Positions 1,657-64,000 of a stretch of DNA of 64,000 bases are shown in pieces. The first letter of the stretch is position 1. Every line of letters begins with the position of its first letter. This DNA is from an archaeon. Its GTDB lineage: Archaea > EX4484-52 > WAPT01. A program made the translations under genes and the position numbers. The notes beneath the pieces are model-generated. The model did not search any database and was not told where the DNA came from. It saw only the letters and a list, made by a program, of their open reading frames with translations. The stretch lies in assembly GCA_029258795.1 (NCBI GenBank), contig JAPDKB010000002.1, forward strand, positions 50,822 through 114,821. Reading direction: 5' to 3'.

Positions 1657-1681
1657 CGCCATAATACTTTCCCTGTTGCAA

Positions 1682-1803: not shown

Positions 1804-2262
1804 TAGAAATTATCCGAATCGCATGTTTACCTAATCGCCAACATAATGCGTTACGAATATCACAAGGAGTGCTATCATCACGTGTTCTGCTATCATGTTG
1901 ACCGGGGTTCATTTTTCATTCTGGCCATTCTGTAACTCAGAAATGAAAGGAGAGACAACTCCCAGAAAACGCTGACCAAAACAGCCTTCTCCAATTCCAG
2001 AAGCAACATGGGCACCAGAAAGCTGAGAGCGAAGATGCTTATTAGGGAGAAGGCTTGCTCTACCGTGGTTCATCACTCCATTAGCTTGTTTGATGAACAG
2101 GTGGAACAAGCCTCCCTATAAATGTTTTGTTATCGGGACAGTATCAAAATTCCGGACATGTCAACTTAAGAACCAATTTCTCCACTCTGGCATAAAAATC
2201 AAAATAAGGGGGCTCAGCATATCTTGATTTTGCAAAACACACCTTAAAGGAGGTGATATACC

Positions 2263-2893
2263 ATGCTGAGCCCCCATATAGATGAAATGTTCTCAAGGAT
2301 ATTTAAAAGAAACAAAAAGCTGAAAGAAAAACAAGATAAAGCCAGTATTGCTTTATTTCTCGGGATTATCATACAGAAAAGCAGGAGATGAAACAGATAT
2401 GAGCCATGAGAACGTGAGAAAGTTATTCAGAAAAACGAAAGAATTTCTCAGGGAAATAAAGCCAGTAAAAAGAAAAACGATAGCAATGGATGAGACGGTG
2501 ATAAAAACAAACGGGAGGAGATGTTACATTTACGCAGCTTACGCATGAGGGCTTATGCAGCAAGAAGTTATTTGGCAGCTCTGGATTTTGTAAAACGGGT
2601 TTTTGGAGTTGGGTAAGAAAATAATCTCCTGTTTGCTGTTGATAAGGCTCCGCGGCATTAGACGGGTTTTTGAAAGACCCGGGTTGAGATATGTGCATGA
2701 GACTTCTGGAATGAGGAATAAAGTGTGGAGGGGGATCTTTTGGTTATTTGAAGCAGGGAAGTGTTTTGTTTTATTCACGACAATTAATGTGAATTTGGGG
2801 TCTGTGTTTGGAAGAATGGATAAAAGGGTTGAGGGATGGAGAAGCTTTGAGGCATCTGAATTTGTTTTTGAAGTTGTTTATGGTTTATTATGA
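2263..2893 (+). pseudogene. Degraded IS6-like transposase (multiple frameshifts)
   Basis: Three consecutive frames together read like one IS6-type transposase: MLSPHIDEMF...ALFLGIIIQKSRR*, then LYFSGLSYRK...MDETVIKTNGRRCYIYAAYA*, then RSYLAALDFVKRV and LRYVHETSGMRNKV; no single intact ORF. Confidence 0.5.
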
Positions 2894-3282
2894 TTGGTTT
2901 GTCAGGAGGTGAGGCTTATCCGGATGCACTCCTTGCACATACCACAAACATTTATATATAACTTTTGCCAAAATATAAAGCCATGATTAAAGATGCAATA
3001 ATGTTGGTTTCTATAATGTGGGGTGGAAGGTCGAAACAATAAGAAAAGAAAGTGGAAAGAATCTTCTTTTGAAATTGACTTTATTTTATGTTGCGCTGGG
3101 TATTGCTATATTTTTTTACTATGTTCGGGACTTTTATGTATATAATCAGGCATTGGATTTTTTGTTCGGTAAAATAGGTGGAACATTCCATACAATTTCA
3201 TTCCTTTCCATTTTCCTCTTCTCCGTAGATATATTTTATTCAGAGAAGTGGAAGAGATAGATATGCTTACTTTCTGGGAATT

Positions 3283-3636
3283 TTGCTGATGACTGTTTTC
3301 GTGATTTTCCTGTGGAACGTAACGTTTGCCAGTGAAATTCAGGTGGTTAAGCTTGATAAGGAGTACGTCGTAACTCACGTTTATTTTCCAGATAAATCCG
3401 AAATGATGCTTTACGTTGTTTTAGTGAGTGTAATATCATTTTTACCTATTCTCTCATTTTTAGCTTACGGAATAAAGGTTCCGGCGAAAAGAAGAAAGGC
3501 TCTAACCTATTGTTTGGGAATAGCCGTTACCGCCTCAGGAACCATGCTTTGCCTCCTTATATCCCCAATACTTGCACGAGTTATGTATCTGCTGGGTGCA
3601 GTCATCTGCTATTATGCTTTCAAAATGAAGAGTTGA
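3283..3636 (+). CDS. Small hydrophobic membrane protein (hypothetical)
   Basis: 117-aa ORF with 3 predicted TM segments, in an AT-rich region; no recognisable family. Confidence 0.3.
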   Translation: MLMTVFVIFLWNVTFASEIQVVKLDKEYVVTHVYFPDKSEMMLYVVLVSVISFLPILSFLAYGIKVPAKRRKALTYCLGIAVTASGTMLCLLISPILARVMYLLGAVICYYAFKMKS

Positions 3637-3640
3637 GGTA

Positions 3641-4114
3641 ATGAACATGACTGTGCTGCGAAAAAAAGAAAGAAGCATATGTATATCCCAGAGAGAATGG
3701 GCGGTGATGACTAAAAGGTTGTATGAAGTTGCAGGAAAGGTTTTTGGTAGAGCGCTCTATGAAGGTGGACAGGTAAAAGGAAAGGAATTGGTAAAAAAAT
3801 ATGGCGTAAAGAAAGACGATTTGAAACAATTGCAAGAAGTAATAAAAAAAGAGGGCCTTGCAAGAAATGTGGAGATACATGATAGAGAAATATTGGTTGA
3901 AGGTTCTTTTGAAGGAGAAGCTCTAAAACCATACACAAGGCCTGTGTGTTTTTATCTCGCAGGGATCATTGCAACCATTTATTCAAAGATAGAAAAGGAA
4001 GATGTAAAAGTTGAAGAAACGGACTGCATCTCCACAGGTAAAAAAGTGTGCAGGTTTGTCGTCAGGCCGCTTGAGTGGTATGAAAAGATGAATGAAGTTA
4101 TGGAAATAATTTGA
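3641..4114 (+). CDS. V4R domain protein
   Basis: 157 aa; C-terminal motif CFYLAGIIATIYS...ETDCISTGKKVCRFVV matches the V4R (4-vinyl reductase) Cys pattern. Confidence 0.55.
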   Translation: MNMTVLRKKERSICISQREWAVMTKRLYEVAGKVFGRALYEGGQVKGKELVKKYGVKKDDLKQLQEVIKKEGLARNVEIHDREILVEGSFEGEALKPYTRPVCFYLAGIIATIYSKIEKEDVKVEETDCISTGKKVCRFVVRPLEWYEKMNEVMEII

Positions 4115-4345
4115 AAAAAGTAAGCATGTTTTGGCTTCGTTTCCTTATATAAAGGGACAAGCAATTGCGACTTACTTATTCATATTATATCGTTTGGATA
4201 GAGGATGCTTGGAACTTTTGAAGTGAGAGGCTTTGGGACACCTATGTAAGCCACCTCCAAACATTTTTATTGGTTATAAGCTATATATCTCTATCGAACA
4301 AACACCTATTCGCGGTCTAAGCCGCAGTATAGCATCTTCGTTCAT

Positions 4346-4419
4346 GGGGATAGGGAAAGCTTAATCAAAATGTCGCAGTCTTAAGCTGCATGTCCCAAGT
4401 CAAGCTTTTCCCTATCCCC
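4346..4419. repeat. 17-bp inverted repeat (GGGGATAGGGAAAGCTT / AAGCTTTTCCCTATCCCC) with ~40-bp spacer
   Basis: Direct reading of 4346-4362 against 4402-4419; additional short palindromes nearby (GCGGTCTAAGCCGC); non-coding stretch. Confidence 0.5.
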
Positions 4420-4562
4420 TAAACATTTCCTTTCTTTTAAGCATGAAGTAAATTGCAATGCATAACTTTCTTGCTGCAGCAACTATTGTTTTGTGTGCTT
4501 CATAAATACCCACGGTGAGAGTCTGGGTCTTCTGGTGGCTATGCCCGACCGGGTTTTTTGAT

Positions 4563-5443
4563 ATGAGAGTGTGCATTGTTGGTCCTGCGAATCCTGGCGA
4601 GACAGAGATAGCTCTCACCGAGGCCGCCAAAAAGCGCTATTCCAAGGTATTGTACGCGCCCTTTTCCCGTCTCAGGATAGAAATGGTTGCCGGAGAGCCG
4701 AGAGCCTTCTACAAGGAATAGACCTTTCAGAGTTTGACATTGTCATACCCCGCGTCAGGAGGAGCGACGCGGATTTCGCATACGTCCTCTTAGGGGTTCT
4801 CGAGGACCTGGGAGTCTATTCTCCAATCTCGAGGGACAGCATTCTCTACGGGTTCAACGAGTATCTCATACCTTTCATTCTCGGGAGGGCTGGGGTCGAG
4901 ACCCTCACAACCCTCCTGGGCTCTACCCGGGCCGCCCTCGAGAAATCGATCTCGAGGCTGAGGTTCCCCGTGGTGGTAAAACTCCCCCACAACAAGGACG
5001 GGGCAATGATAGTGGACAGCGAGAAGATCGCCAGGTGCGTGCTCGACACTCTCGAGAGCCTCGGAGAGCCGATAATAGTCCAGGAGATGCTCGAGGGATC
5101 TGAGAGCTTCAGCATCCTCTATATCGGGGAGAGAACATATTGCATAGAAAAGCACAACGGGACCGCGAGAAAGAGAAAGCTTGGCATAGAAGAAAAGCGG
5201 ACCGCGAGGCGCATGACATCCCTCCTGGGAGCGAGCGTGTGTCAGCTGAACGGAATGATCTCTGGAGATAGGCTCGTGGTCATAGACCTCAACATCAACC
5301 CCTGGGTGCACAGACTCCAGGAGCACTTCAAGACCAACCTGTTCGAAAAGATCCTGGACCACCTGGAGAGCGGGTACTCTTCCTCTCGACGGGGCACTAT
5401 CCTAGACAAGTTCCTGAAATGGTTCGAGGAGATGAGGTGGTAG
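4563..5443 (+). pseudogene. RimK-like ATP-grasp ligase interrupted by a frameshift at ~4715
   Basis: N-terminal part MRVCIVGPANPGETEIALTEAAKKRYSKVLYAPFSRLRIEMVAGEPRAFYKE* (ORF 4515..4721) continues in another frame as GIDLSEFDIVIPRVRRSDADFAYV...PVVVKLPHNKDGAMIV (ORF 4571..5443); junction sits at a GG run; region is markedly GC-rich versus flanks. Confidence 0.6.
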
Positions 5444-5613
5444 AGTGTACAACGTTCTCATTACGGCATCGCCAAGAGTCTTGTGGACTACCCGCCAGCT
5501 TATTGAGGAGGGCAGGAAGAAGTTCAACCTCCACGTTGTCTCTCTATATGTTATCAATATTGAGGTTTCTCCCGGGATCGTCTCGTGCAGGCACAAGCGC
5601 TATTTATAAACGT

Positions 5614-13011: not shown

Positions 13012-13181
13012 GCGGGGGTTGCCGAGCCTGGCCAAAGGCGCTGCCTTGAGGGGGCAGCCGCCGCGGTGTATGAGAGGTGGCGCCGCAGTGGCCCATTCCC
13101 TTAGTGGGTTCGAGGGTTCAAAAGCTTGGTCAAGCCGTCCTCCCTCGGCAGCTTAAATGGCTGGAAGTCCCTCCCCCCGCA
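13012..13181 (+). tRNA. tRNA-Leu (anticodon GAG, tentative) with two non-canonical introns (variable region and T-loop)
   Basis: GCGGGGG acceptor pairs with CCCCCGC+A+CCA; D-arm GCCGAGCCTGGCCAAAGGCG; anticodon arm CTGCC-TTGAGGG-GGCAG; T-stem GAGGG...CCCTC split by ~45 nt; ~40 extra nt before the variable arm (TCCCTTAGTGGGTTC). Confidence 0.6.
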
Positions 13182-13213
13182 CCACCATCATGCTTCATGT
13201 TCCTTACGTTCAT

Positions 13214-13351
13214 GCGGGGGTTGCCGAGCCTGGCCAAAGGCGCGGGGCTTAGGACTCCGTGGCTCAGTGCCTGCGTGGGTTCGAAGGCCGCTGTTCGGTG
13301 GCTGGGTTTTCAAGTCCGATCTTAACGCGGCCGGAACTCCCACCCCCCGCA
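13214..13351 (+). tRNA. tRNA-Leu (anticodon TAG) with T-loop intron
   Basis: Same 30-nt 5' end as the upstream Leu gene; anticodon arm CGGGG-CTTAGGA-CTCCG; long variable arm; T-stem GTGGG...CCCAC interrupted by ~50 nt after TTCGAA; CCA encoded. Confidence 0.65.
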
Positions 13352-13423
13352 CCAGCCCGAACCAGATTTCTGCCAAGAATTCACCATTAATTATATAAAC
13401 GATGAAATCCCCAACCTTTACTC

Positions 13424-15466: not shown

Positions 15467-16633
15467 TCACTGCTCTCTCTTGCTCCCGATCGTCACCAGC
15501 TCCGTGTTTTCAAGCGCTTTTTCCACAAGCCCTTCAACATCCATATTCTCCTCTATTCTCTTCACAACCTCCAGCTTTGCCCTTGTTTCGGGATGCTTCG
15601 CTATCATGAACGAGCAGCAATCGGGATATGGTTGAATTGAAATTTCGTACGTGCCGATCCTTTTTGCAAGATCTATGGTTTCCTCCTTGTCAAAGCCAGC
15701 TAGCGGTGTGAGCACGGGCATGCCTGTAGCTTCATAAATCGCTGCAAGATTGTCCAGAGTTTGCGATGCTACCTGCGCCACATTGTCTCCGGTGACAAGC
15801 GCGTTTGCTCCCTCCTTTCTCGCTATTTTTTCACCTATCCTCATCATGAACCGCCTGTAGATTATCATTCTGTAGGAGGCGGGCACAACCTTTATTATCT
15901 CGCGCTGCACATCTCCAAAATTCACCATGTAGAGCTTGCTCTCGCCCTGAAATTCTGCAAGCACCCTCACAATGCTCTCGATCTTCTTCCTCACCTCCCT
16001 GCTGTGCAGCGTTTCATTGAAGAAATGGACAAAAACAATTTTGCATCCGCGTTTCATGAGAAGGAATGATGCAACAGGGCTGTCTATACCGCCTGAAAGC
16101 AGGGACACCACCCTGCCGGAAACGCTGACCGGCAGACCGCCAACACCCTCAATTCTTTCCGTGTAGATGTACGCTTCCTTCTCACATATCTCGATGTGCA
16201 CCACAACATCCGGCTCTTTCATCTTCACCTTCTTGCCCAGCTTCTCCACCACCACACTCCCAACCATTCTGTTGATCTCCATCGAGTTGTATGGAAAGGA
16301 TTTGTTTGAGCGTGATGCCGCTATCTTGAACGTGCTGAACTTCATGTCCTGGAGAATGGCTACTGCAGCTTTCTTGATCGCCTCGATATCCAGCTTGCAA
16401 ACCCTTGCCAGCGCGAAATATCTTATGCCCGGAGTTTTGCTGAGCTTCTCCGCAATTTCATCAGCCTTGCTTTCATCTCTAATCTCCACTATTATCCTTC
16501 CAAACCTTCTCCTTGCCAGCGCGCCGGCCCCCTTCACCTTCCTGTTGATGTTCTCCACCAGCTTTTTCTCAAAGAATTCCCTGTTCTCTCCTTTCAACCC
16601 TATTTCGGAATAATGCACAACAAAAACCTTCAT
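15467..16633 (-). CDS. thiI: tRNA 4-thiouridine sulfurtransferase ThiI
   Basis: 388 aa; N-terminal THUMP-like region; PP-loop SGGIDSPVASFLL; overall ThiI architecture. Confidence 0.8.
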   Translation of the reverse strand: MKVFVVHYSEIGLKGENREFFEKKLVENINRKVKGAGALARRRFGRIIVEIRDESKADEIAEKLSKTPGIRYFALARVCKLDIEAIKKAAVAILQDMKFSTFKIAASRSNKSFPYNSMEINRMVGSVVVEKLGKKVKMKEPDVVVHIEICEKEAYIYTERIEGVGGLPVSVSGRVVSLLSGGIDSPVASFLLMKRGCKIVFVHFFNETLHSREVRKKIESIVRVLAEFQGESKLYMVNFGDVQREIIKVVPASYRMIIYRRFMMRIGEKIARKEGANALVTGDNVAQVASQTLDNLAAIYEATGMPVLTPLAGFDKEETIDLAKRIGTYEISIQPYPDCCSFMIAKHPETRAKLEVVKRIEENMDVEGLVEKALENTELVTIGSKREQ

Positions 16634-17362: not shown

Positions 17363-17710
17363 TCACTTTTTCTTGGAAGAGGTGCTTTTCTTCTTGGTTG
17401 TGCTTTTTGCTTTGGTTGCTGTTTTCTTTGTTTTCTTCTCCCCAACCTCGGCTTCAACCTCCTCCAGCTCGGCTTCTTCTTCCTCCAGCAGCTTGTTCAT
17501 CTTGTAATCATCCCACGCTATCCACGCTACAAGCATGCCCATGAAGAACAGGAATGCTCCGAAGACGCCCTCAAACACTATCTTGAGGCTTTTCCAGAGT
17601 GCCGCTCCAAAGTACGGGATGTTACCGATATACCAATAGATGCCAGCAGCCATCAGCAGGATACCTATGACCATCTTAACTCCATTGTTCATCCGACCAC
17701 CTCTAAGCAT
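17363..17710 (-). CDS. Small membrane protein with acidic linker and lysine-rich tail (hypothetical)
   Basis: 115 aa; two hydrophobic helices, then EEEEAELEEVEAEV, then KKTKKTATKAKSTTKKKSTSSKKK; lies in the gap between L15e and the helicase. Confidence 0.4.
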   Translation of the reverse strand: MLRGGRMNNGVKMVIGILLMAAGIYWYIGNIPYFGAALWKSLKIVFEGVFGAFLFFMGMLVAWIAWDDYKMNKLLEEEEAELEEVEAEVGEKKTKKTATKAKSTTKKKSTSSKKK

Positions 17711-35215: not shown

Positions 35216-35365
35216 GGGCCGGTGGTCTAGCCTGGAAGGACGTCGCCTTGGCATCACACAGCTTTCACGGCTGTGTGCCAGTATGGCGGAGGCCCCGGGT
35301 TCAAAATGGCTGCTTACGCCGTTTTAAGAATCGGGCAAGCTTTCATGAAAATCCCGGCCGGTCCA
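35216..35365 (+). tRNA. tRNA-Ala (anticodon GGC) with a canonical anticodon-loop intron and a second intron in the T-loop
   Basis: Acceptor GGGCCGG/CCGGTCC gives the G3:U70 alanine identity pair; D-arm GTCT-AGCCTGGAA-GGAC; anticodon stem TCGCC...GGCGG with ~30-nt insert after TTGGCA containing a 9-bp hairpin; T-stem CCGGG...CCCGG split by ~45 nt; CCA encoded. Confidence 0.75.
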
Positions 35366-35403
35366 CCACATATAAATTTTTTTCTCTCCATCTTTAACTC
35401 TCA

Positions 35404-37182
35404 ATGACAAGAAAACTACCAACGATGTATGAGATAAAATCAATAAGGAATGAGACGCCTTCTATAAAGACGTTTTCATTTCACGCTCCCGAGATAGCGA
35501 AGCTAGCAAAACCCGGGCAGTTTCTCATGGTCTGGTTGCCCGATATTGATGAAATTCCAATAAGCGTTGCCTTTGCCGATGAGAAAAGCGGCACGGTGGA
35601 GCTGGCAATTGCAAAAGTGGGGGACTGTACATCCAAAATCCATGAGTTGAAAGAGGGTGATGTTCTGGGTTTGCGCGGTCCCTATGGTAACGGCTTCGAT
35701 ATTAATTATGGGATGGAGGAAGCTTGGCTCGTTGCAGGAGGGTGTGGCGCTGCCCCACTACGCTTTCTCGCAAGCAGGCTGAAGGAAAAGGGAGCGAGTG
35801 TTACAACTTTCATAGGCGCGAGAAATAGGAGTGAGCTTCTCTACCTTGCCAAGTTTAAGGAGATAGGTGAAGTTATGGTTGCCACAGATGATGGAAGCAC
35901 CGGCTACAAGGGTTTTGTGACCGAACTGCTGGAAAACGAGCTCAAAAACTGCAAGCCAGACATGATTTTCACTTGCGGACCCGAGCCCATGATGCGAAAG
36001 GTCTGTGAGGTGGCAGAAAAGGAAGGGGTAAGGGTGCAGGCATCGATAGAAAGGATGGTGAAGTGTGCAAGAGGCGCATGCGGAGCATGCGACATTTTTG
36101 GCTTTAGGGTCTGTAAGGAAGGTCCAGTGTTCGATGGAATGTTCCTGCTCAGGACAGAATTCGGCAGGTGGAAGCGCGACAAGAGCGGGAAGAGGATAGG
36201 GATTGCGGGCAACACAGACCTTTCCTCACCACCCATTCCCGAGTTCAGACCAACCATAAATCCCAAGCTGAGTATGAAGCTCCTCAACATCCAATTCCCG
36301 AATCCATTCATGAATGCTGCTGGTTTTGGTGTGTCCGGCATGCTTCTTTACCGCTACGTCAAAAACGGAGCTGGAGCAGTCGTTACAAAATCCGTGGGGA
36401 AGGAGGAGAGAGGAGGATTTCCCAACCCTACCTTTGGCGAGCTTGAAGATGGCACTTATTTCAACGCTATGGGTCTTCCCAACCCCGGCATAGATAATTA
36501 CCAGCTTGACATTCAGGATGCGAAGAAAGCTAACGTGCCCGTTGTGGTCAGCATATTTGGACAGAGTGAGGAGGAATGTGCTTACGTGGCGTCAAAAGCC
36601 ATTGAATATGGTGCAGATATGATCGAGATTAATGTTTCATGTCCTCATACGGAAATTTCAAGCGTGGAGAACGACCCCGAACTTGTGAAAAGCATAACAA
36701 GAGCTGTGGTTGAGATTGCAGGGAAAAACGGTGTGCCTGTAACCGTAAAACTATCTCCCAACGGTGATTACGTGAGCGTTGCCAAAGCCGCTGAGGAAGG
36801 AGGGGCAAGCGCCATAACCGCCATAAACACTGCACGAATAAGACCCACAATCGAGTTTGATGGCAAGGAGCTCAAAATCCTTGGAAATCCTACCGGCTAT
36901 GGCGGGATGTCGGGCAGGAAGCATAAGGAAACCGGAAAGAAGGTTGTGTACGAGCTTTATGAGGAGATAAGCATACCCATAATCGGCGTGGGAGGTATAT
37001 TCAACGGCAGGGACGCTTTTGAATACGCGGCATGTGGAGCTTCACTCTTCCAGATAGGTAGCGCTATGGTCCACAGAGGCTTAAGCGTGTTTTCAGCCAT
37101 CCAGAAGGAGCTTGAGGAAGAGCTTGAAAAGAATGGGTTTGAGAAGCTGGAGGATGTTGTGGGAGCTTATCACAAAAGGTGA
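35404..37182 (+). CDS. pyrD: Fused dihydroorotate dehydrogenase: electron-transfer subunit (PyrK-like) plus catalytic subunit (PyrD class 1B)
   Basis: N-terminal PyrK-like FAD/NAD and Fe-S region (GQFLMVWLPDIDEIPISVA...CARGACGACDIFG), C-terminal PyrD region (FPNPFMNAAGFGVSG...NPGIDNY...IGVGGI). Confidence 0.8.
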   Translation: MTRKLPTMYEIKSIRNETPSIKTFSFHAPEIAKLAKPGQFLMVWLPDIDEIPISVAFADEKSGTVELAIAKVGDCTSKIHELKEGDVLGLRGPYGNGFDINYGMEEAWLVAGGCGAAPLRFLASRLKEKGASVTTFIGARNRSELLYLAKFKEIGEVMVATDDGSTGYKGFVTELLENELKNCKPDMIFTCGPEPMMRKVCEVAEKEGVRVQASIERMVKCARGACGACDIFGFRVCKEGPVFDGMFLLRTEFGRWKRDKSGKRIGIAGNTDLSSPPIPEFRPTINPKLSMKLLNIQFPNPFMNAAGFGVSGMLLYRYVKNGAGAVVTKSVGKEERGGFPNPTFGELEDGTYFNAMGLPNPGIDNYQLDIQDAKKANVPVVVSIFGQSEEECAYVASKAIEYGADMIEINVSCPHTEISSVENDPELVKSITRAVVEIAGKNGVPVTVKLSPNGDYVSVAKAAEEGGASAITAINTARIRPTIEFDGKELKILGNPTGYGGMSGRKHKETGKKVVYELYEEISIPIIGVGGIFNGRDAFEYAACGASLFQIGSAMVHRGLSVFSAIQKELEEELEKNGFEKLEDVVGAYHKR

Positions 37183-40255: not shown

Positions 40256-40537
40256 GCGGCAGGGCTAGGCCGGGGAGCTAGCCCCTCCCTGTAACCGCAA
40301 ACGGGCTAACGGCGGGGCCGAAAACCGGGGGGCGGGCGATTGGCGGCTCGCTGGGCAGCTTGCTGCTGAACAATGACTCTCTGCCCCCGAAGGCCGCTGT
40401 ACCGGTGAACCGGGTCAGGCCCGGAAGGGAGCAGCCCTAAGCCGGTACTTCGGTGCTTCGGGATCAGCGGAGAGGAGGTAGGCAGCATCTCTGCCCGCGA
40501 GCTTAGCCGCGCTCCACCCCCGGGAAGCCCTGCCGCG
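40256..40537 (+). ncRNA. Signal recognition particle RNA (7S/SRP RNA)
   Basis: Helix-8 core GGUGAACCGGGUCAGGCCCGGAAGGGAGCAGCCCUAAGCC; 5' GCGGCAGGGCUAGGCCGGGG pairs with 3' CCCCGGGAAGCCCUGCCGC; GC-rich ~280 nt; TATA-like AAAATATTTAA about 30 nt upstream. Confidence 0.75.
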
Positions 40538-41457: not shown

Positions 41458-41588
41458 CGCCGCGGGCCGGATTTTCACTTCTCAAAGAGCAGGTTTCCTC
41501 TTTTATTCCCAGCTCCGCTTCGAACCGGCGCGCCCTTGCGGGCAGTGGCTCTCGAGGCCACCGCACTACCTGGCTATGCGACCGCGGC
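41458..41588 (-). tRNA. tRNA-Ser (anticodon CGA, tentative) with T-loop intron
   Basis: Reverse complement: acceptor GCCGCGG/CCGCGGC+G+CCA; anticodon arm GTGGC-CTCGAGA-GCCAC; long variable arm TGCCCGCAAGGGCGC; T-stem GCCGG...CCGGC split by ~48 nt. Confidence 0.6.
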
Positions 41589-55703: not shown

Positions 55704-55852
55704 TAACTCGCCCCCACTTTACATAGAAAATTGCCAGCAAAATGATAAATATGTTTTGTCATGTTTTGAAAGAAGATGAGATTCGAAATATCGGTTAGGA
55801 CCTAAGGCGGGAGTGATGGTCTAAAATTAGGAAAAATCCGTGATATGATTGG

Positions 55853-55973
55853 AGCCCCGGCCGGGATTTTCATGGAAGATTACTCGACCCTTAAAGCGGC
55901 GTCGAGCAGCCATTTTGAACCCGGGACCTCTTCCTTACCAGGGAAGCGCTCCACCAGGCTGAGCTACCGGGGC
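55853..55973 (-). tRNA. tRNA-Thr (anticodon GGT) with T-loop intron
   Basis: Reverse complement: acceptor GCCCCGG/CCGGGGC+T+CCA; D-arm GCTC-AGCCTGGTGGA-GAGC; anticodon arm CTTCC-CTGGTAA-GGAAG; T-stem CCGGG...CCCGG split by ~45 nt. Confidence 0.7.
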
Positions 55974-56034: not shown

Positions 56035-56814
56035 TCAGGCTGCAAGGGCTTCTATGAAAAGTGCAGCCAGCATGAATATGGAAAAGGACGCTCCCAAAAC
56101 ATAACTTTCCTTTGCATATTTTTCGGGGTCAAGCAACATTTTGTAAGCACAGTAAAAAAGCACAGCCATAAAAATAGCTCCAACCTTCACATGCACCATC
56201 CCGAACAACTTGACCGGGAGCAGAAGGATTGTTCCGCCCACGAAAAGAAAAATAGAAGCCACCATGCCCGTAATTTTCTCACCGTACAGCGCTGAGAGGG
56301 TCTCATAGCGGTATTTATCAGTATCTAACGACACCTCCCACATGAGTTCCAAAGCCGCGAAAACGAAAAATATGGTAATGCTGAGCAACGCAAGTGTTTC
56401 ATTTATTCCAAAAACAGAACCTCCAGCCAGAAAGATCAGAGCTGCTGCAAAAGAGCGGAGGATGAAAGATAGCCATTTATCTCGGAGCAGAAAGTGAAGC
56501 ATACTCATCACAAAGAGGAGCGAGTATAACAATCCAGATGTTGTGGAGATTGTGAAGAACATGAGGATCATCGCAAATGGAAGGGCGAGTAACGCAATTC
56601 CGGGAACCCATTTGAACTTTTCTCCGTTTCTCATTCTTGAATCCAGAATGATGAGGAATCCTATTGAGATCAGACCCAGCGGAATCACATGCAGCGTGTC
56701 CCTCACACCAATTCCGGAATTTCTTGCACTCACCAAAGCACCAGTAATGAATAAAGAAAGAGCAAGAAGCATCTTTTCTATTGTGTGTCCATTACTGCTT
56801 TCAGCATCGTCCAT
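56035..56814 (-). CDS. Polytopic membrane protein (hypothetical)
   Basis: ~260 aa with at least 7 hydrophobic helices; ATG at 56814 inside ORF 56035..56832. Confidence 0.45.
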   Translation of the reverse strand: MDDAESSNGHTIEKMLLALSLFITGALVSARNSGIGVRDTLHVIPLGLISIGFLIILDSRMRNGEKFKWVPGIALLALPFAMILMFFTISTTSGLLYSLLFVMSMLHFLLRDKWLSFILRSFAAALIFLAGGSVFGINETLALLSITIFFVFAALELMWEVSLDTDKYRYETLSALYGEKITGMVASIFLFVGGTILLLPVKLFGMVHVKVGAIFMAVLFYCAYKMLLDPEKYAKESYVLGASFSIFMLAALFIEALAA

Positions 56815-56847
56815 GATCCCCACTCTTTCCAAATAAAATAGCAGGAA

Positions 56848-57024
56848 TTACTTCTTGGATGCTCCTCTCATCTGTTTCTTCTTCGGTCTTAATCTTTTAG
56901 AACCACATTTCCTGCACTTCGCTTTAGCAGGATTCTTAACCCTGATTCTCGCATTGCACCTCATGCAAACATAAACATTCCTGAACATTCTCTCCTCCAC
57001 AACTTCCGGTCTGGGCGTGGCCAT
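56848..57024 (-). CDS. rpl40e: Ribosomal protein L40e
   Basis: Hand translation of the minus strand: MATPRPEVVEERMFRNVYVCMRCNARIRVKNPAKAKCRKCGSKRLRPKKKQMRGASKK*; C-x2-C...C-x2-C zinc ribbon; below the 60-aa ORF-track cutoff. Confidence 0.75.
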   Translation of the reverse strand: MATPRPEVVEERMFRNVYVCMRCNARIRVKNPAKAKCRKCGSKRLRPKKKQMRGASKK

Positions 57025-57101
57025 GAGACATCACCATCAAAAACTGAACACGGAGTTTGAACACAATTATGCTGTTGTGTAAATTTTATAAATATTTGGC
57101 A

Positions 57102-57689
57102 TTATGGCTGTCCTTTTTCATGTTTCTCATTCCTCACCAGCTTCTCAAGCTCATCGGACCAGCTAACCGATCCAATTTCGTACTCTTCCTCTTTTACCCC
57201 GCGCTCAAGGAGAGCAAGCATAACTTCCACCACGTCATCAGGCGGGGTGGATGTGGTGTCTATTTCGTAAGCCATTTTCCATCTTTTCAAGTGATACGCT
57301 TCTTGAGTTATCACATCCAGTATCTCCGCCTCAACGTTTTCCCTGATTTTTTCCGGACCCCATCCTTTCGCTTCAAGACGTTTTCTAAGTTCATTCGGGT
57401 GGCACCTTAGAATGAAAAGAGCATCGACCTTTATGAAGTGCGCCAGGTGTCCCTCTACCACAACATGTCTGGAAAGGTTAGCCTTTTCCAGCGCGTTTTC
57501 CAGCTTTTCAACATCAACAATATAGCATTTTCTTTTCTTATCATAACCTTCTATTGCTTTAAGTTTCTCAGCAAGCTCATTAACTTCAACTACTTTCCAT
57601 CCCAGCCTTCTTGCAAGTTTTTGGGCAAGAGTGGTCTTACCAGTTCCGGGAGTGCCTGTTATCCCGATGCTTTTTACGTTCACATCCAT
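57102..57689 (-). CDS. Putative adenylate kinase (AK6/Fap7-like)
   Basis: Walker A IGITGTPGTGKTTLAQKLARRLG near N-terminus; ~190 aa; first ATG at 57689. Confidence 0.6.
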   Translation of the reverse strand: MDVNVKSIGITGTPGTGKTTLAQKLARRLGWKVVEVNELAEKLKAIEGYDKKRKCYIVDVEKLENALEKANLSRHVVVEGHLAHFIKVDALFILRCHPNELRKRLEAKGWGPEKIRENVEAEILDVITQEAYHLKRWKMAYEIDTTSTPPDDVVEVMLALLERGVKEEEYEIGSVSWSDELEKLVRNEKHEKGQP

Positions 57690-57697
57690 AGACGTTC

Positions 57698-59911
57698 TCA
57701 ACCTCTTATTGTTTGAAAAATGAGCTTGATGATTGTGTTCAGCTGTTGAATTAATTCAGATAATAAGGTGGAAATGTTTTCTTTCATCTGACCGATGAAA
57801 ATGCGGACCCCATTACCTTTCAATTCTCCCCGCCACACAACTTTTGACCCCACTTCATCAAAACATACAATCTCAGCGTTCTTTCCGGAGAGAGGCGCAT
57901 CTATCATCACTCTGTTATCTCCAGCCAAAAGTTTGTTAGGGATGGGAACATAGTTTTTGCCATCAACCAAAACACTCAGATTGTGACATACATTGTTGAT
58001 GGAAATTAACAGGAATGTTCTGTTATCGCGTGCATACACATCTTTAACTTTCATCTCAGTCTTCTCTATGATCTTGTATACAACGGGTATGGCATCAACG
58101 ACCTCATCATTCATTAGGAGCTTCACCCAAACCATTCTTTCACCAGTTCCTCTGGGTTTGATGTTTGCCTCAAGCTCATTTTTACCATTTTCGAGTTTGA
58201 ATTCTTCAGCACCGATTTTGATGGTTAGATTTTGGGCTTTGGAAGGGTTGAAAATCTCAACTTTGATGGTGATCTCGCTTCCGTTATACACAGTACTGGG
58301 ATGGAACACACTACCAATGTACGGAAGCTTAACATCGCTGGTGGTGTAGCTTAGCACTTGATAACCACCATGTTCATCGAACACAAACATCCTCTGGGAT
58401 GGAGTTTGGGGGAGGTAAAATATTCGAGACTCACTTTGAAGATCATAAGATTCCAGCATGACATCATTACCCACATATAATTTGAGGGGAGTTACACACC
58501 CTTCTGCGTTCACAATAACACCCACATCCGCATTACTTTGCACCTCTTGCCTGAGAAGTGATGCACGCCAGCATTTTGCATGCGGTTTTTGGAGCGGTGA
58601 TACTTTAATTTCAACCGGCAGGGCTCGTGGTTCAGTGTAGTATGTGTTGAGCGTGAGGGGGCAGATGTATTCGTAGTGGGGGTCCAGCTGATTTGAGGCT
58701 TTGACGATCCAGTAGTGGTATGCATTCTTTCCCGCCGCTTCCGTAACATATGCTGTGCTGTCCTCAATTTCCAAAATGCTGGCGCCTTTACATGGCAGAA
58801 GAATGAGTTTATCCACTTTTGTCGTGGTTGGAGTTATCTTAACCCATACAACACCCGAGCCACCAAGAGGTAAGGTTAAAGGGGCAGCGTACAGCGCAAC
58901 ATCATCTCTTGGAAACTGCTTTTCAACCAAGCTTACTTCAAATTGGGGTTCTTCCGAGTTCCAGTTTATATCTCGTATGTTGTACCCTTCCACTTTTATG
59001 TTGTTCGATATCTTGTTGTCCAGATACGATCCCATATATATGTGGGTTGCATCCACATTACCCACTTCAAGCCATAAGACATCCACGGGAATCCATCTAT
59101 CACCCACATAGACCTCTGCTATGGCATGACTTTCCCATCCATTTTTGCCAAAAGCATAAACATGAGCATATCTTGCAGGAATGCCTATTGCTCTTGCAAG
59201 CGCTATGAAAAGGGTTGTATATTCAGCGCACACACCTCTCCTGTTTTTCAGAACCCACAACGCATCTTTGTTTTCATCAGCATATCCCTCATCATACTCA
59301 ACATTTTCGTTTACCCAGATAGCCAACGCTGCAACCTTCTCAAAATCATTTGTGGCATTTTGCGTTAATCTCCGGGCCAGCGATCGGATTTCGGGGGCGT
59401 TGCTTTGAATGTTCTCTGTCGGCAGGAGGTACTGCTGAATTTCTGCAGGATATGCGCTACCGATTAGATTGCTGCTTTCCAATGGGTGTTTCACCTCAAA
59501 GGATTTCGAAACCACATGAAACTTGAGTTCATATCTGTAAGTGTTGGGCGGATTCTTTATTTTCAGGCTGCATATTGTGTTCCCATCCTTATCCTTCAAC
59601 AACTCACATTCCGAAGGGTATGAAATTACGTTCTGCCATTTGTTGCTGTAAGGTATGCTCAGGTTGATTTCGAGAAGTTTACCTTCTCCATGAAAGCTTA
59701 CCTCTCCTTTAAACGTGATCCACGCATCCAGCTCTGACACATACCTTGCCTCAGTTGAATTTAAAACAACATTTTCCCGAGCCAAGGATAAATTGCTCAC
59801 AAAACTCAGGAAAATCATTGCTGCAAAGACGGATAAAATGGAGATGTTAATCCATCTACGGTTCCAGATAACAGATTTAAAAGTTAAGCACTCACTTACT
59901 ATCATACGCAT
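57698..59911 (-). CDS. Secreted transglutaminase-like domain protein
   Basis: 737 aa; signal anchor; catalytic-core-like GVCAEYTTLFIALARAIGIPARYAHVY...HAIAEVYVGDRWIPVD (Cys-His-Asp). Confidence 0.65.
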   Translation of the reverse strand: MRMIVSECLTFKSVIWNRRWINISILSVFAAMIFLSFVSNLSLARENVVLNSTEARYVSELDAWITFKGEVSFHGEGKLLEINLSIPYSNKWQNVISYPSECELLKDKDGNTICSLKIKNPPNTYRYELKFHVVSKSFEVKHPLESSNLIGSAYPAEIQQYLLPTENIQSNAPEIRSLARRLTQNATNDFEKVAALAIWVNENVEYDEGYADENKDALWVLKNRRGVCAEYTTLFIALARAIGIPARYAHVYAFGKNGWESHAIAEVYVGDRWIPVDVLWLEVGNVDATHIYMGSYLDNKISNNIKVEGYNIRDINWNSEEPQFEVSLVEKQFPRDDVALYAAPLTLPLGGSGVVWVKITPTTTKVDKLILLPCKGASILEIEDSTAYVTEAAGKNAYHYWIVKASNQLDPHYEYICPLTLNTYYTEPRALPVEIKVSPLQKPHAKCWRASLLRQEVQSNADVGVIVNAEGCVTPLKLYVGNDVMLESYDLQSESRIFYLPQTPSQRMFVFDEHGGYQVLSYTTSDVKLPYIGSVFHPSTVYNGSEITIKVEIFNPSKAQNLTIKIGAEEFKLENGKNELEANIKPRGTGERMVWVKLLMNDEVVDAIPVVYKIIEKTEMKVKDVYARDNRTFLLISINNVCHNLSVLVDGKNYVPIPNKLLAGDNRVMIDAPLSGKNAEIVCFDEVGSKVVWRGELKGNGVRIFIGQMKENISTLLSELIQQLNTIIKLIFQTIRG

Positions 59912-59941
59912 ATCAATTTATGTTCGCGAGGTGATTAATAA

Positions 59942-60907
59942 ATGTTTGAGATATGGACCGAAAAATACCGACCAAAACGACTGGATGAAGTTATCGGACA
60001 GGAACATGTTGTCTCACGTCTCAAAGCTTTTGTAAAAAGCAAGAACATACCAAACATGCTTTTTGCTGGGCCAGCGGGTGTAGGTAAGACAACATGTGCT
60101 ATCGCCCTCGCAAGAGAGCTTTATGGAGAGGAGAACTGGAAACAGAACTTTCTGGAAACAAATGCTTCAGACGAGAGAGGCATAAATGTTATAAGGGGTA
60201 AGATCAAAGAATTCGCGAGAACAAAGCCCATAGGAGATGTGGGCTTCAAGATAATCTTTCTGGATGAGAGCGATGCTCTCACACAGGAAGCTCAGCAGGC
60301 GTTAAGGAGAACCATGGAAAAATACGCCAACACAACTCGCTTTATCCTTTCCTGTAATTATTCATCTAAGATTATTCCTCCAATACAATCGAGGTGTGCT
60401 GTTTTTCGCTTCAAACCGATAGATCCGGAGAAGATGAAAGCACACCTGAAGAAGATATGCGAATCCGAGGGTATTGAGGTGACGGAGGAAGGACTGGATG
60501 CGGTGGTGAGGGTTTCAGAGGGGGACATGAGGCAGGCGATAAACATTCTTCAGGCGGTTTCCATCACCACCAAAAAGCTTACAGTCCAAAACGTTTACGA
60601 GGTGGCAGCTTCCCTTAAACCAGAGGAAGTAAAGGAGATACTGGAACTTGCTTTAAAGGGTAATTTCACTCAGGCGAGAGATAAGCTCATCGAGGTTATG
60701 GTTGAGCGTGGTATGTCGGGAGTGGATGTGATTAAGGGGATACACAGGGAGATTCTCGGCCTGAACATAGAGGAAAGAGAGAAGGCGCATCTTATTGATA
60801 GACTTGGGGAATATGAGTTCAGAATTGTAGAGGGGGGTAGTGAGGATCTGCAAATTGAAGCATTTCTTGCAGAAGTGGTAGCGCTAAAATCAAAATTGAT
60901 TAGATGA
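59942..60907 (+). CDS. rfcS: Replication factor C small subunit
   Basis: WTEKYRPKRLDEVIGQEHVV, Walker A GPAGVGKTT, DEAD-like FLDESDAL, SRC motif IQSRCAVFRF. Confidence 0.85.
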   Translation: MFEIWTEKYRPKRLDEVIGQEHVVSRLKAFVKSKNIPNMLFAGPAGVGKTTCAIALARELYGEENWKQNFLETNASDERGINVIRGKIKEFARTKPIGDVGFKIIFLDESDALTQEAQQALRRTMEKYANTTRFILSCNYSSKIIPPIQSRCAVFRFKPIDPEKMKAHLKKICESEGIEVTEEGLDAVVRVSEGDMRQAINILQAVSITTKKLTVQNVYEVAASLKPEEVKEILELALKGNFTQARDKLIEVMVERGMSGVDVIKGIHREILGLNIEEREKAHLIDRLGEYEFRIVEGGSEDLQIEAFLAEVVALKSKLIR

Positions 60908-61002
60908 TACTGCTCCTCAAAAGACCTCTTCTTTTCTTTTTAATCTTCGTGTCAAAATAAAATAAAAAGAAAGAGAAATTCAGTGCTTGCCCTTTATCTC
61001 GT

Positions 61003-61467
61003 TTAAGCGTACTTGCCGCTCAAGGTTCCTGTGTTCGCTATATCCTGAGTAAATCCTTCAGGTGTGTAGTATATTGTTGTTTGCAATGTGTAGCACTTTC
61101 CTTCCTTTGCATCGGAAATAGTTGCTGACCCCGAAATAACCGCTTTGCTTCCTGGCTGTAGGTTGGTTCCTCCGTTTATGTTCGTTACCTCAACATCACC
61201 CAGCTTCACTCGGGTGATATTCACCACTCTATCCATTCTGTTTTCCACTTCAATCTGAAAAGTCACTGTACCGGTATTGTCAGCATCCAAGGAAAATGTC
61301 CCTGTAGGAACAACTGCATTCACCATTTCAAAGCCATTCGCTCCTCCCGGTCCACAGGCCCTGTTAGAGAACACTTGGGTATAGAGTAAAGCACCCACTA
61401 TTGCTATCGCTAGCAACGCCCAGCCATACGTCATTAAGTATTCGGTTGCTGCCTGACCTTTTCTCAT
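61003..61467 (-). CDS. Archaeal type IV pilin (class III signal peptide)
   Basis: MRKGQAATEYLMTYGWALLAIAIVGAL: KG-Q cleavage motif with hydrophobic helix. Confidence 0.65.
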   Translation of the reverse strand: MRKGQAATEYLMTYGWALLAIAIVGALLYTQVFSNRACGPGGANGFEMVNAVVPTGTFSLDADNTGTVTFQIEVENRMDRVVNITRVKLGDVEVTNINGGTNLQPGSKAVISGSATISDAKEGKCYTLQTTIYYTPEGFTQDIANTGTLSGKYA

Positions 61468-61561
61468 GCTAACACCTCCTAAGAGCTGCTTAATGTTTTT
61501 ATGCCATAAACCCCTATATAAATCTTTTCCGCGGATATCTTCTCATTCGACAGCCAACTAA

Positions 61562-62611
61562 TTACAATATGATGCTGAATATCTTTTCCATAACCTTTAT
61601 CGTGCCATAATATATGCTGAGCGAAAGGATTATGAAGGGAGGTATGTATTTTATTGCCTCTTTTGCAGAACCGTTCTGAATTATGGAAATCAGTATGCTG
61701 GCGAATATTATGTTTATGACCAAACAGAGAATGGAGAAAATGGAAAAGCTATGGACATCCAGCTGAACAGGTTTCATGGTTATGAACCCTCCTCCCAAGA
61801 ATTGAGACGCTTCCTCCCCTATGGTTACACCACCCCACACAGACGTTGTGGTGGATAACAACACATTAGAAATCGCGAAAAGAAATGGAGCTGCTATGAC
61901 TCCTGCTATGAATATAAACATCATGTACATGGAAACATTCGACCTTATTTCCCGCTGGAGCACCTCAGCAGTCCTTAAATCGTTGGCAGTTTCCTCAAGC
62001 AAATTTGCTATTGTTCCACCTGATTTTATACCTTCAAGCAGCAGTTTTACTGTTCTTTCAAGGGATACAGATTTTACTCTATTAACCAGTTTTTTAAACG
62101 CCGTGCCGACATCCTCTCCTCCATAAATCTCGAATGCGACCTTCTTAAACTCCTGGGCAAGCTCCCCAAACTCGGGACGGGAAGCGAAAAGAATGGCACG
62201 GTCTATGGTAAGCCCTGACTTTATGTTGGCCGCTATCAGCATCAGGATGTCGGGAAGCACCGCTTCCATCCTTTTTCTTCTCCCCTCAGCCATGTAGGTG
62301 AAGAGAAGGTAAGGTAGGTAGTATCCGAAGGGAAGCATGATGAATGAAGGAATCAGGGCAAGATGAATCGGTACATGAAATGTAACGAAAAGAACAGCAC
62401 TTTCTATCAATCCCACGAGCCACATTATGAGAATTAAAGCTCCACAAAAAACACTTTTATCTCCCTCTATCCCCGCATATATTTTTTCTTTTTCAATCTT
62501 TTTCCTGTATTTTCTTGGCAGATAAGAGTAGAAGGTGTACGCTATATCCTTTAAATTCTGTTTTACATTCAATTTCCTTATCTTCCTGTGTGTGAATTTC
62601 AATTGCTTCAT
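61562..62611 (-). CDS. Pilus assembly membrane platform protein (T2SS-F domain, TadC/FlaJ-like)
   Basis: 349 aa polytopic; central cytoplasmic domain AVLPDILMLIAANIKSGLTIDRAILFAS...LLEGIKSGGTIANLLEE. Confidence 0.55.
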   Translation of the reverse strand: MKQLKFTHRKIRKLNVKQNLKDIAYTFYSYLPRKYRKKIEKEKIYAGIEGDKSVFCGALILIMWLVGLIESAVLFVTFHVPIHLALIPSFIMLPFGYYLPYLLFTYMAEGRRKRMEAVLPDILMLIAANIKSGLTIDRAILFASRPEFGELAQEFKKVAFEIYGGEDVGTAFKKLVNRVKSVSLERTVKLLLEGIKSGGTIANLLEETANDLRTAEVLQREIRSNVSMYMMFIFIAGVIAAPFLFAISNVLLSTTTSVWGGVTIGEEASQFLGGGFITMKPVQLDVHSFSIFSILCLVINIIFASILISIIQNGSAKEAIKYIPPFIILSLSIYYGTIKVMEKIFSIIL

Positions 62612-63471
62612 ATTTTCACCGATGGACGTTTACTTCTAACCACCTGAACGAACATGTACTGAAAGACGAGCAGGGTGAACAAACCCACCGCAAGCATACT
62701 CTTATCCACCACCAAACCGACAAATGATGAAAGTATCATGAGGAAAGTTATGCCCAGCGAAGGCACGATTATCCCGAACATCATGTACATCAGGGTCCAT
62801 GGGTTGAGTTCCTGTCCGTATTTCTTTATCGCGATGAGCTGCTCTTTCAAAATTTCATCCACCACTGCTTCAAGCGATTTGGTGAGGTCTGCTCCGGTCT
62901 TCACGGCAGTGAGCAGCTGCCACAGAGCCCTTCTTAAAGGGAGAGACGGATTTTTGGATATGCTGTCCTCAAGCGCTTCCACCTGACTCTTACCGGCATT
63001 TATGTTCTCGATTATATGTCTGAACTCCTTTGACGCTTCTCCATACCCTTCGGAGACGGCAACCATGGCATGGTAGAGAGGCACACCCGCTTTAACCTGA
63101 ATCAGCAAATGCCTCAGAGCGTAGGGGAGATCCTCCTCTATCTTTCTGCCGCGCTTTCTCACGAGGAGTCGTGGATAGTAAAGTGAGGAATAGAAGTTGA
63201 CCAGAAAAAATAGAGGATATGAAATTAACCCCACTTTTATGATGAGGTTATCCTGCATTATAATTCCTCCAAGCAGAATGATGGTGCCAATCATGAATGA
63301 AGTATATACACCTTTGTAAAGCGAGACGGCTATATGCTCAACCAAATTAAGCTTTGATCTGGCTTTGACGAGATCGGCATTGAGATGAAAGAGGGATGGC
63401 TCGAGCTTCTTTGCAAGCGGAAAGAACTTCCTCGCTTTTTTGAGCATTATCTCATCATCGACACGAGGCAT
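62608..63471 (-). CDS. Pilus assembly membrane platform protein (T2SS-F domain, TadB-like)
   Basis: 287 aa; EDLPYALRHLLIQVKAGVPLYHAMVAVSEG...LLTAVKTGADLTKSLE; 4-nt overlap with the downstream paralog. Confidence 0.55.
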   Translation of the reverse strand: MPRVDDEIMLKKARKFFPLAKKLEPSLFHLNADLVKARSKLNLVEHIAVSLYKGVYTSFMIGTIILLGGIIMQDNLIIKVGLISYPLFFLVNFYSSLYYPRLLVRKRGRKIEEDLPYALRHLLIQVKAGVPLYHAMVAVSEGYGEASKEFRHIIENINAGKSQVEALEDSISKNPSLPLRRALWQLLTAVKTGADLTKSLEAVVDEILKEQLIAIKKYGQELNPWTLMYMMFGIIVPSLGITFLMILSSFVGLVVDKSMLAVGLFTLLVFQYMFVQVVRSKRPSVKI

Positions 63472-63477
63472 CGCACA

Positions 63478-64000
63478 TCACAGCGCTATAATTTTGAGTT
63501 CTTCAAGCAGGTCTTCGTCCAGAAGCACTCTTGGGTCTTCATCTTTCTGTGCCATCCTCACTATTTCCTCTTCATTTCTGTAGTATTCTGCCGTTATCTT
63601 GCCTATGGTGTTCACGGTTTTAATTCCATGTTTTTTCAACCACTCCAGAATCATCACTTTCTTTCGTATGTCTTCATCAATTTCTCGCTCAGTTAAGCCG
63701 GTGTAAAGATTTATCTCTCTGTAAATGCGCCAGCATTTGTTGAGCCGCTTAAAGGTATCATTTCCAGCATTCCATCTATAAATCACATTAAGACCAAGTT
63801 CCTTATCACCCGGCATTATCTCAACCATTTCCAGAGTTTTTCTAACTCCCAACCTCCTGTGACGGAACTGCACAACTATCATGTGCAGAGCACTGAGTAT
63901 GGAGGGTGGCAGTTCCATGGGGGGATTTGTGAGTCTTTTCACAACCTCCTCAGCCCTGTCTCCATGGAAGGTGGCGTAAGCGCTGTGACCCGTCCTTATG
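63478..64000 (-). CDS. Type II/IV secretion-family ATPase (FlaI/TadA-like), C-terminal part (5' end beyond window)
   Basis: Frame stays open to the window edge (...TGHSAYATFHGDRAEEVVKRLTNPPMELPPSILSALHMIVVQFR...), matching the C-terminal region of archaeal pilus/archaellum ATPases. Confidence 0.65.
   Translation of the reverse strand, partial: IRTGHSAYATFHGDRAEEVVKRLTNPPMELPPSILSALHMIVVQFRHRRLGVRKTLEMVEIMPGDKELGLNVIYRWNAGNDTFKRLNKCWRIYREINLYTGLTEREIDEDIRKKVMILEWLKKHGIKTVNTIGKITAEYYRNEEEIVRMAQKDEDPRVLLDEDLLEELKIIAL

Follow-up and report, generated by a model that had tools for sequence, protein, structure and literature searches.

Background

From the Thermoproteales, tRNAs of different identity have been described that carry similar introns at one and the same position. 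Fujishima, Sugahara, Tomita and Kanai (2010), as relayed in PMC4033280 and PMC4090602, report such introns from seven genomes of that order and read them as intron transposition. The tRNA-Ala(GGC) and tRNA-Thr(GGU) genes described here resemble those translocatable introns closely: in both systems similar BHB introns occupy the same position in different tRNAs with no other special relationship between their bodies, and for both the reading (for the Thermoproteales, in the form in which those two sources relay it) is one of spread between tRNA genes after speciation. The host belongs to the DPANN lineage EX4484-52, or 'Terrarchaeota', and not to the Crenarchaeota (Thermoproteales), a difference that is taxonomic rather than mechanistic. 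The present case also differs in being a single two-member family in 64 kb, whose gain is bracketed by intronless orthologs in sister genomes. The Thermoproteales data rarely kept the uninterrupted ancestral state visible; here the empty sites are preserved.

Two other described systems come close. The pre-tRNA-Cys(GCA) of ARMAN-2 ('Ca. Micrarchaeum') has a 59/60 intron (Fujishima et al. 2011, PMC3239211; used as a substrate in PMC5829648), and motifs of the strict form are reported to be cleavable even by narrow-specificity endonucleases (PMC5829648). This ARMAN-2 intron is a non-canonical one at the same T-loop position, likewise in a DPANN archaeon; its motif is a relaxed hBH that needs a broad-specificity endonuclease, whereas the Ala and Thr introns form a strict hBHBh'. 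We know of no report of paralogous copies in ARMAN-2. In Caldiarchaeum subterraneum, a recent intron gain in tRNA-Thr(GGU) is also seen between close genomes (Sugahara et al. 2012, PMC3293823), but there the gain is linked to a 1.8-kb element that encodes a recombinase and to a scattered fragment of a tRNA (PMC3293823), neither of which is seen beside the Ala or Thr gene.

The window, by which we mean the whole stretch of 64,000 nucleotides that was analysed, contains the tRNA-Ala and tRNA-Thr genes some 20 kb apart. With a probability that we put at roughly 0.8, the T-loop inserts of these two genes are paralogous, recently gained, endonuclease-type introns. They are similar across tRNA identities, sit at the same 59/60 position and were gained later than the tRNA genes that carry them, which makes the pair a recent case of an already described form of tRNA intron spread, in a lineage previously without report. 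Such spread, on this reading, reaches beyond the Thermoproteales and still goes on in a DPANN lineage; the Ala/Thr pair is a clean instance of it that can be dated, from a phylum named only recently.

Results

Host lineage and genomic context

The window has a G+C content of about 44%, and genes for MC1 and NreA lie near tRNA-Ala. The SRP RNA is archaeal, full length and apparently not permuted (Table 1). The fused PyrK-PyrD protein encoded beside tRNA-Ala has relatives at NCBI with 79%, 78% and 63% identity, followed by a large ANME-1/Methanophagales set at about 53%. The most similar of them sits, in the same gene order, in GCA_015520605.1, the type genome of 'Candidatus Marinivulcanus frater' (Marinivulcanaceae, phylum EX4484-52; PMC13195033). 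In a 2026 paper EX4484-52 receives the name 'Terrarchaeota' and is assigned to DPANN cluster 2, with Nanohaloarchaeota as its sister group (PMC13195033). Judged from sequence, the nearest named relative of the host is 'Ca. Marinivulcanus frater', and the host itself is accordingly an uncultured hydrothermal archaeon of DPANN type. ANME-1/Methanophagales were rejected as closest relatives, their identity of about 53% being below that of the 79% relative and unfit for taxonomy; the likeness of PyrK-PyrD to ANME-1 may reflect gene transfer between vent archaea or the small number of DPANN genomes with the gene. A literature search returned no paper joining ANME-1 with a tRNA intron, and the Terrarchaeota paper (PMC13195033) contains no mention of introns. 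Membership of the host in the Thermoproteales was likewise rejected on the MC1 and NreA neighbours, the protein relatives and the placement of GCA_015520605.1 in EX4484-52/'Terrarchaeota'.

Gene order around both tRNA genes is rearranged between relatives (window 56035-63942 compared with positions 1-5600 of the retrieved loci L027 and L028, and 1-5700 of L036 and L037). An archaeal pilus/T2SS block adjoins the tRNA-Ala region in L027 and L028 and lies about 26 kb off in the window. Beside tRNA-Thr, GCA_027038505.1 and GCA_027081555.1 have a type III-A CRISPR-Cas (Csm) module, which is absent from that place in the window.

Table 1. Features of the window, with positions counted from its first nucleotide.
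Feature	Position	Strand	Remarks
tRNA-Val(CAC)	1682-1803	+	D-arm-region insert of ~45-50 nt; no encoded CCA; missed by ARAGORN and by Rfam (gathering)
tRNA-Leu(GAG) 59/60 intron	13123..13167	+	45 nt; unrelated (0.48-0.51 to Ala/Thr); gene 13012-13184
tRNA-Leu(UAG) 59/60 intron	13286..13337	+	52 nt; unrelated (0.47-0.50 to Ala/Thr); gene 13214-13354
tRNA-Ala(GGC) gene	35216..35368	+	2 introns; CCA encoded; acceptor stem with G3:U70
tRNA-Ala canonical 37/38 intron	35254..35283	+	30 nt; read from sequence
tRNA-Ala T-arm plus intron, hBHBh' splice motif	35295..35357	+	rule-based scan, constrained folding
tRNA-Ala T-loop 59/60 intron	35306..35351	+	46 nt, ATGGCTGCTTACGCCGTTTTAAGAATCGGGCAAGCTTTCATGAAAA; BHB scan and constrained fold
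Fused PyrK-PyrD dihydroorotate dehydrogenase	35404-37182	+	592 aa; beside tRNA-Ala
Archaeal SRP RNA	40258-40534	+	Rfam RF01857, 139 bits
tRNA-Ser(CGA) 59/60 intron	41472..41518	-	47 nt; unrelated; relaxed inner helix; gene 41590-41455
tRNA-Thr(GGU) gene	55850..55973	-	1 intron; CCA encoded
tRNA-Thr T-arm plus intron, same hBHBh' motif as tRNA-Ala	55861..55924	-	scan, constrained folding
tRNA-Thr T-loop 59/60 intron	55867..55913	-	47 nt, ATGGCTGCTCGACGCCGCTTTAAGGGTCGAGTAATCTTCCATGAAAA; BHB scan and constrained fold

Two tRNA genes with similar T-loop inserts

Spliced as in Table 1, tRNA-Thr is recognized by ARAGORN as a 77-nt tRNA-Thr(ggt), and tRNA-Ala without its T-loop insert likewise becomes a 77-nt cloverleaf. 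ARAGORN labels the spliced tRNA-Ala Thr(ggt) as well, having placed the canonical intron at 36/37, and this label was rejected; the identity is Ala(GGC), because the BHB geometry gives the anticodon GGC and because G3:U70 is the Ala identity pair. Neither insert is an artefact of assembly, since both are unchanged in ENA ERZ25515926, an independent assembly of the same species that differs slightly from this one, and both recur in Logan contigs, the Thr intron being identical in the ENA and Logan assemblies of the species.

In a global alignment the two inserts agree at 38 of 47 positions (81%) with one 1-nt gap, and MAFFT aligns the T-arm plus insert of the two genes with one 1-nt gap as well. 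The initial annotation had put the similarity at about 80%, and the sequences, coordinates and strands it gave agree with ours. Its placing of the inserts in the T-loop also stands, although not the exact ends, since its strings took in T60; the BHB geometry gives 46 nt for Ala and 47 nt for Thr. The flanking T-stems CCGGG/CCCGG, which it took to be identical, are so in both genes, as are the initial four bases on the 3' side of the acceptor stem, and the identity reaches across a whole 22-nt T-arm block, composed of CCCGGGTTCAAA (12 nt) 5' of the insertion point and TCCCGGCCGG (10 nt) 3' of it.

Similarity of this kind could be confined to nucleotides that splicing dictates, and the ends (5' ATGG, 3' CATGAAAA) were accordingly removed. 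The remaining interior is still identical at 26 of 35 positions (74%), with an alignment score of 16 against a shuffle mean of -6.8 and a shuffle maximum of 9; none of 20,000 shuffles scores as high. A comparison with 63 other distinct 59/60 introns, drawn from metagenomes, the same window and relatives, gives 0.78 for the Ala-Thr interior (74-78% across both measures), while the other introns average 0.43-0.45 to Ala or Thr and reach a maximum of 0.62. About 60 of the 63 (the metagenome examples and the Ala intron of L027) lie in tRNAs with the identical T-stem. The metagenome set was collected from JGI metagenome contigs with the pattern CCGGGTTCAAA-N30-60-TGAAAATCCCGG, which yields 65 loci, at least 55 of them with a complete acceptor-stem partner upstream. 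No other non-orthologous pair of T-loop introns in the window and relatives exceeds 0.52 identity. The claim that the similarity extends past the splice nucleotides and the T-stem is thus borne out, the interior of the pair standing at 74-78% against about 44% in other introns, and the alignments show that the two interiors are homologous, not convergent.

Splice motif and predicted splicing

A strict hBHBh' scan recovers both inserts; it demands outer and central helices of 5 and 4 bp, two bulges of 3 nt each and at least 3 bp of inner helix. The outer helix of both motifs is the T-stem CCGGG/CCCGG. In the 4-bp central helix, TTCA (nt 54-57 of the T-loop) pairs with TGAA at the 3' end of the intron, and the bulges are, in both introns, AAT on the 3' strand and AAA on the 5' strand. 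The inner helix is TGG/TCA in Ala, where it continues into a hairpin, and TGG/CCA in Thr, followed by an 8-bp hairpin (UGCUCGAC/GUCGAGUA). Enforcing the motif costs 1.4-1.8 kcal/mol: the Ala fold has -17.4 kcal/mol with the BHB constraint and -19.2 without, and the Thr fold -24.6 and -26.0. The same geometry is found in five further 59/60 introns of the window and relatives, with tRNA-Ser(CGA) of the window showing a relaxed form only; across the 59/60 introns, BHB folds lie 0.3-3.9 kcal/mol from the MFE.

With the cut predicted to follow the second nucleotide of each bulge, the intron falls at 59/60 and its removal gives back the normal loop TTCAAAT. The identical rule places the canonical tRNA-Ala intron at 37/38, its BHB consisting of the anticodon stem, a bulge TAT, a central helix TTGG/CCAG, a bulge CAT and an inner helix CACACAGC/GCTGTGTG. 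The predicted spliced exons equal the uninterrupted orthologous genes save for one T-loop base in three Thr orthologs. By their modelled folds, then, both inserts are ordinary archaeal endonuclease-spliced BHB introns. As in the established archaeal pathway, the splicing endonuclease EndA would cut the pre-tRNAs and the ligase RtcB would join the exons; splicing machinery probably exists in this genome, since six further tRNA genes of the window carry introns. Group I and group II introns have a catalytic core of hundreds of nucleotides. Self-splicing introns of either group were rejected as candidates, the inserts being just 46-47 nt long and the window as a whole giving no Rfam intron match at gathering thresholds.

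Orthologous genes and the age of the gain

The tRNA-Thr(GGU) ortholog is intronless in GCA_015520605.1, GCA_027056545.1, GCA_027038505.1 and GCA_027081555.1 and in one ENA scaffold, and it is flanked in the window and in the intronless relatives by the same two ORFs. The mature body of the window's tRNA-Thr equals that of the orthologs at L036 and L037, and those at L033-L035 differ from it by the one T-loop base (G57 for A57). A tRNA-Ala(GGC) ortholog lies upstream of the PyrK-PyrD gene in every relative, with identical exons (L027, L028 and L029). In GCA_027038505.1 and GCA_053998655.1 this gene has the canonical intron and an uninterrupted T-loop. In GCA_015520605.1 (L027) it has a 49-nt intron exactly at 59/60, unrelated to that of the window (0.44 identity). 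Both copies of the Ala/Thr intron are therefore recent, lineage-specific gains, being absent from the orthologous genes of relatives, and the intronless orthologs in sister genomes mean that the introns were not inherited by way of tRNA gene duplication.

An approximate clock is provided by the canonical tRNA-Ala intron, which is orthologous in L027, L028 and L029 at 50-62% identity to the window. Its identity is 56-62% when the window is compared with the two closest relatives, and 84% when these two are compared with each other. The T-loop copies, at 81%, are more alike than the canonical Ala orthologs at 56-62%, so that the copying post-dates the split from those relatives. The 19% divergence between the copies would mean, as read from the two sequences, either that the event is not very recent or that such introns drift fast. 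The tRNA-Ala(GGC) gene with its 49-nt 59/60 intron occupies 9809-9966 of L027, and the gene without it 9858-9966 of L028; since the canonical Ala introns of these two loci are 84% identical and the 59/60 intron nevertheless differs, a very recent gain or loss took place there too.

Scans of larger collections returned no further member of the family. Across GTDB species representatives the exact family pattern GTTCAAAATGGN{28,48}CATGAAAATC gave no archaeal tRNA with the Ala/Thr intron, a family-specific pattern gave 0 matches in JGI metagenomes, and an interior-motif scan gave 0 matches in IMG/VR; all three scans used exact patterns, by which diverged members would be missed. The 25 GTDB pattern matches (24 bacterial, one in Methanobrevibacter) were judged to be chance. 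With blastn-short, both introns and the L027 intron gave self matches and chance matches of at most 13 nt against the window and the fetched loci, and no third copy. There is no tRNA in the 10 kb beyond the far end of the window (L104). The two known copies are those in the 64 kb plus about 10 kb of genome that the analysis covered.

Discussion

How the intron was copied

The initial annotation had proposed intron transposition or gene conversion, and it is this proposal that the data favor: the similarity of the interiors goes beyond the splice motif, the Thr orthologs are intronless, and the Ala T-loop intron is absent or unrelated in relatives. The intron would have been copied from one of the two tRNA genes to the other, or into both from a third genomic copy, after the split from the sequenced relatives. 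The route we prefer is a homology-guided conversion at the DNA level, which would proceed through the identical 22-nt T-arm (12 + 10 flanking bases); to a DNA-level route we give about even odds. The review PMC4090602 likewise argues for intron gain at the DNA level. The flanking exons of Ala and Thr were identical already before the insertion, hence no co-converted exon markers are to be had.

What would make such copying productive is the division of the splice motif. The intron would supply its own half, namely TGAA, bulge bases and inner helix, and the host tRNA would supply only the T-stem and the conserved TTCA-AA/T of the T-loop, found in almost every tRNA. An intron of this build should therefore be movable to another tRNA and still be cleanly removed. 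Portability of this sort would account for the frequent interruption of 59/60 in the host genome, and offers a simple, testable reason for a hot spot there; one need not assume that the intron does anything other than be spliced out. In tRNA genes the 3' part is a common target of integrases. On the idea of Randau and Söll, cited in PMC4090602 and PMC4390854, that introns shield tRNA genes from integrating elements, such protection could favor the keeping of 59/60 introns.

Among the other explanations, the one that survives best, though we think it improbable at perhaps one chance in five, is that both copies came independently from a third source, for instance a master intron housed by some other tRNA gene or what is left of an integrated mobile element. 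Neither copy need then be the direct parent of the other, which suits their 19% difference; a model of this kind has been proposed for the Caldiarchaeum tRNA-Thr(GGU), and most of the host genome lies outside the window. Yet no integrase, partial tRNA duplicate or element remnant lies beside either gene, the intronless relatives have the same neighbor genes, the scan of IMG/VR did not find the interior motif, and no similar sequence occurs in the window or the fetched loci.

Somewhat less likely again is retro-transposition, in which the endonuclease and ligase steps run backwards and join an excised (possibly circularized) intron into the T-loop of a different tRNA, and the product is then reverse-transcribed and recombined into the gene. 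The intron's own half of the BHB would let any tRNA T-loop accept it and remain spliceable, and the three states seen at one nucleotide in orthologous tRNA-Ala genes fit a site-specific insertion at the level of RNA structure. Against this, no reverse transcriptase is seen in the annotated parts of the window. To our knowledge, reverse transcriptases are rare in archaea. The review PMC4090602 favors a DNA-level process.

A third possibility concerns the reason for the similarity and not the route. The initial annotation had also suggested that a conserved functional RNA is embedded in the intron. Such an RNA would be a small one with a function of its own, for example a guide RNA or a stable circular RNA, and selection on that function would preserve the sequence. 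Guide RNAs of the C/D-box type can reside in archaeal tRNA introns, as in the Haloferax tRNA-Trp intron. That euryarchaeal intron is also a case of conserved sequence inside an archaeal tRNA intron, but it is about 100 nt long, stands at the canonical position, carries C/D boxes and is conserved across genera, whereas the Ala and Thr introns have 46-47 nt, lack the boxes and are species-specific. It may be said for an embedded RNA that four of the nine differences between the copies fall in predicted stem pairs and that all four still pair (G-U to G-C and similar). The splice motif with its inner helix explains why these pairs are kept, and the number of compensatory double changes is zero. 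Neither intron has a sense-strand Rfam match at gathering or at E<=10, the Rfam matches on the introns being just opposite-strand ones (E=3-7) far below gathering scores, and neither contains a C box (RUGAUGA) or a D box (CUGA). Of each 46-47 nt intron, the splice motif already takes up 10-11 nt. Neither the sister species nor any scanned collection yielded the family, which speaks against a conserved function. With no Rfam match, no C/D boxes and no finding of the family outside the species, the suggestion is without support, and we regard it as very improbable.

Scarcely credible, finally, is convergence, by which any 59/60 intron on such a T-arm must look alike for the sake of the splice motif: the ends (A...TGAAAA) do have to pair with the conserved T-loop, which fixes their sequence, and are common to all retrieved metagenome examples though required there by the search pattern, but the 63 other introns average 44% interior identity with a maximum of 62% against 78% for Ala-Thr, and the interior score was met by 0 of 20,000 shuffles.

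Detection by standard finders

Introns of this type interfere with the programs by which tRNA genes are usually found. All seven tRNA genes of the window are interrupted, with at least eight introns among them. ARAGORN finds one of the seven, with the wrong bounds, and Rfam at gathering thresholds finds two, tRNA-Thr only as its 5' part (55918-55973, 30.2 bits). For tRNA-Val(CAC), many variants of splicing its D-arm insert give a cloverleaf acceptable to ARAGORN. With tRNAscan-SE 2.0 the number of introns per gene is 0.84 in Thermoproteales and 0.21 in archaea overall (PMC8450103). DPANN archaea are described as having heavy disruption of tRNA genes, with incomplete sets pointing to disrupted genes that went undetected (PMC5829648). 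The type genome of the sister species was published with 'tRNAs: 15/20' (PMC13195033), a figure that may reflect undetected disrupted genes. Introns of the 59/60 type probably lower the tRNA counts that are used to grade metagenome-assembled genomes, which is a warning for estimates of MAG completeness.

Other interrupted tRNA genes and the 59/60 site

The 59/60 site is interrupted in five of the seven tRNA genes of the window (Leu-GAG, Leu-UAG, Ala, Ser and Thr). The genes for tRNA-Leu(GAG) and tRNA-Leu(UAG) stand in tandem, and the former contains a further insert, some 30 nt long, directly after the anticodon stem. According to Kanai (2015, PMC4390854), no translocatable intron was known in class II tRNAs; the class II Leu introns at 59/60 resemble no other intron here, so that there is no conflict with that statement. 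The orthologs of tRNA-Ser(CGA) (L027 at about 17378-17492, minus strand; L028, T-arm at 16255-16297, minus strand) have at the same site a different intron of 26 nt, with 0.33 identity to that of the window and 0.89 to each other. On these identities tRNA-Ser(CGA) is a second case of turnover of the 59/60 intron in an orthologous gene.

At the one orthologous Ala site, three close genomes show an empty site, one intron and another, unrelated intron, with a copy of the window's intron also in a second tRNA. We raise, tentatively and as something we hold to be rather less probable than its opposite, that T-loop position 59/60 is a hot spot at which Marinivulcanus-like EX4484-52 archaea actively gain, lose and replace introns, and that the Ala/Thr family is currently mobile. 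If true, these genomes would provide a natural before-and-after system for how archaeal tRNA introns are gained.

In metagenomes, 59/60 introns with TGAAAA at their 3' end occur widely among uncultured archaea, with 65 loci for one T-stem sequence alone. Many of their interiors (L039-L103) are low-complexity CTTTTC...GAAAAG palindromes, and some families recur across tRNA bodies and samples (e.g. L055, L065 and L077, at about 0.77-0.78 identity).
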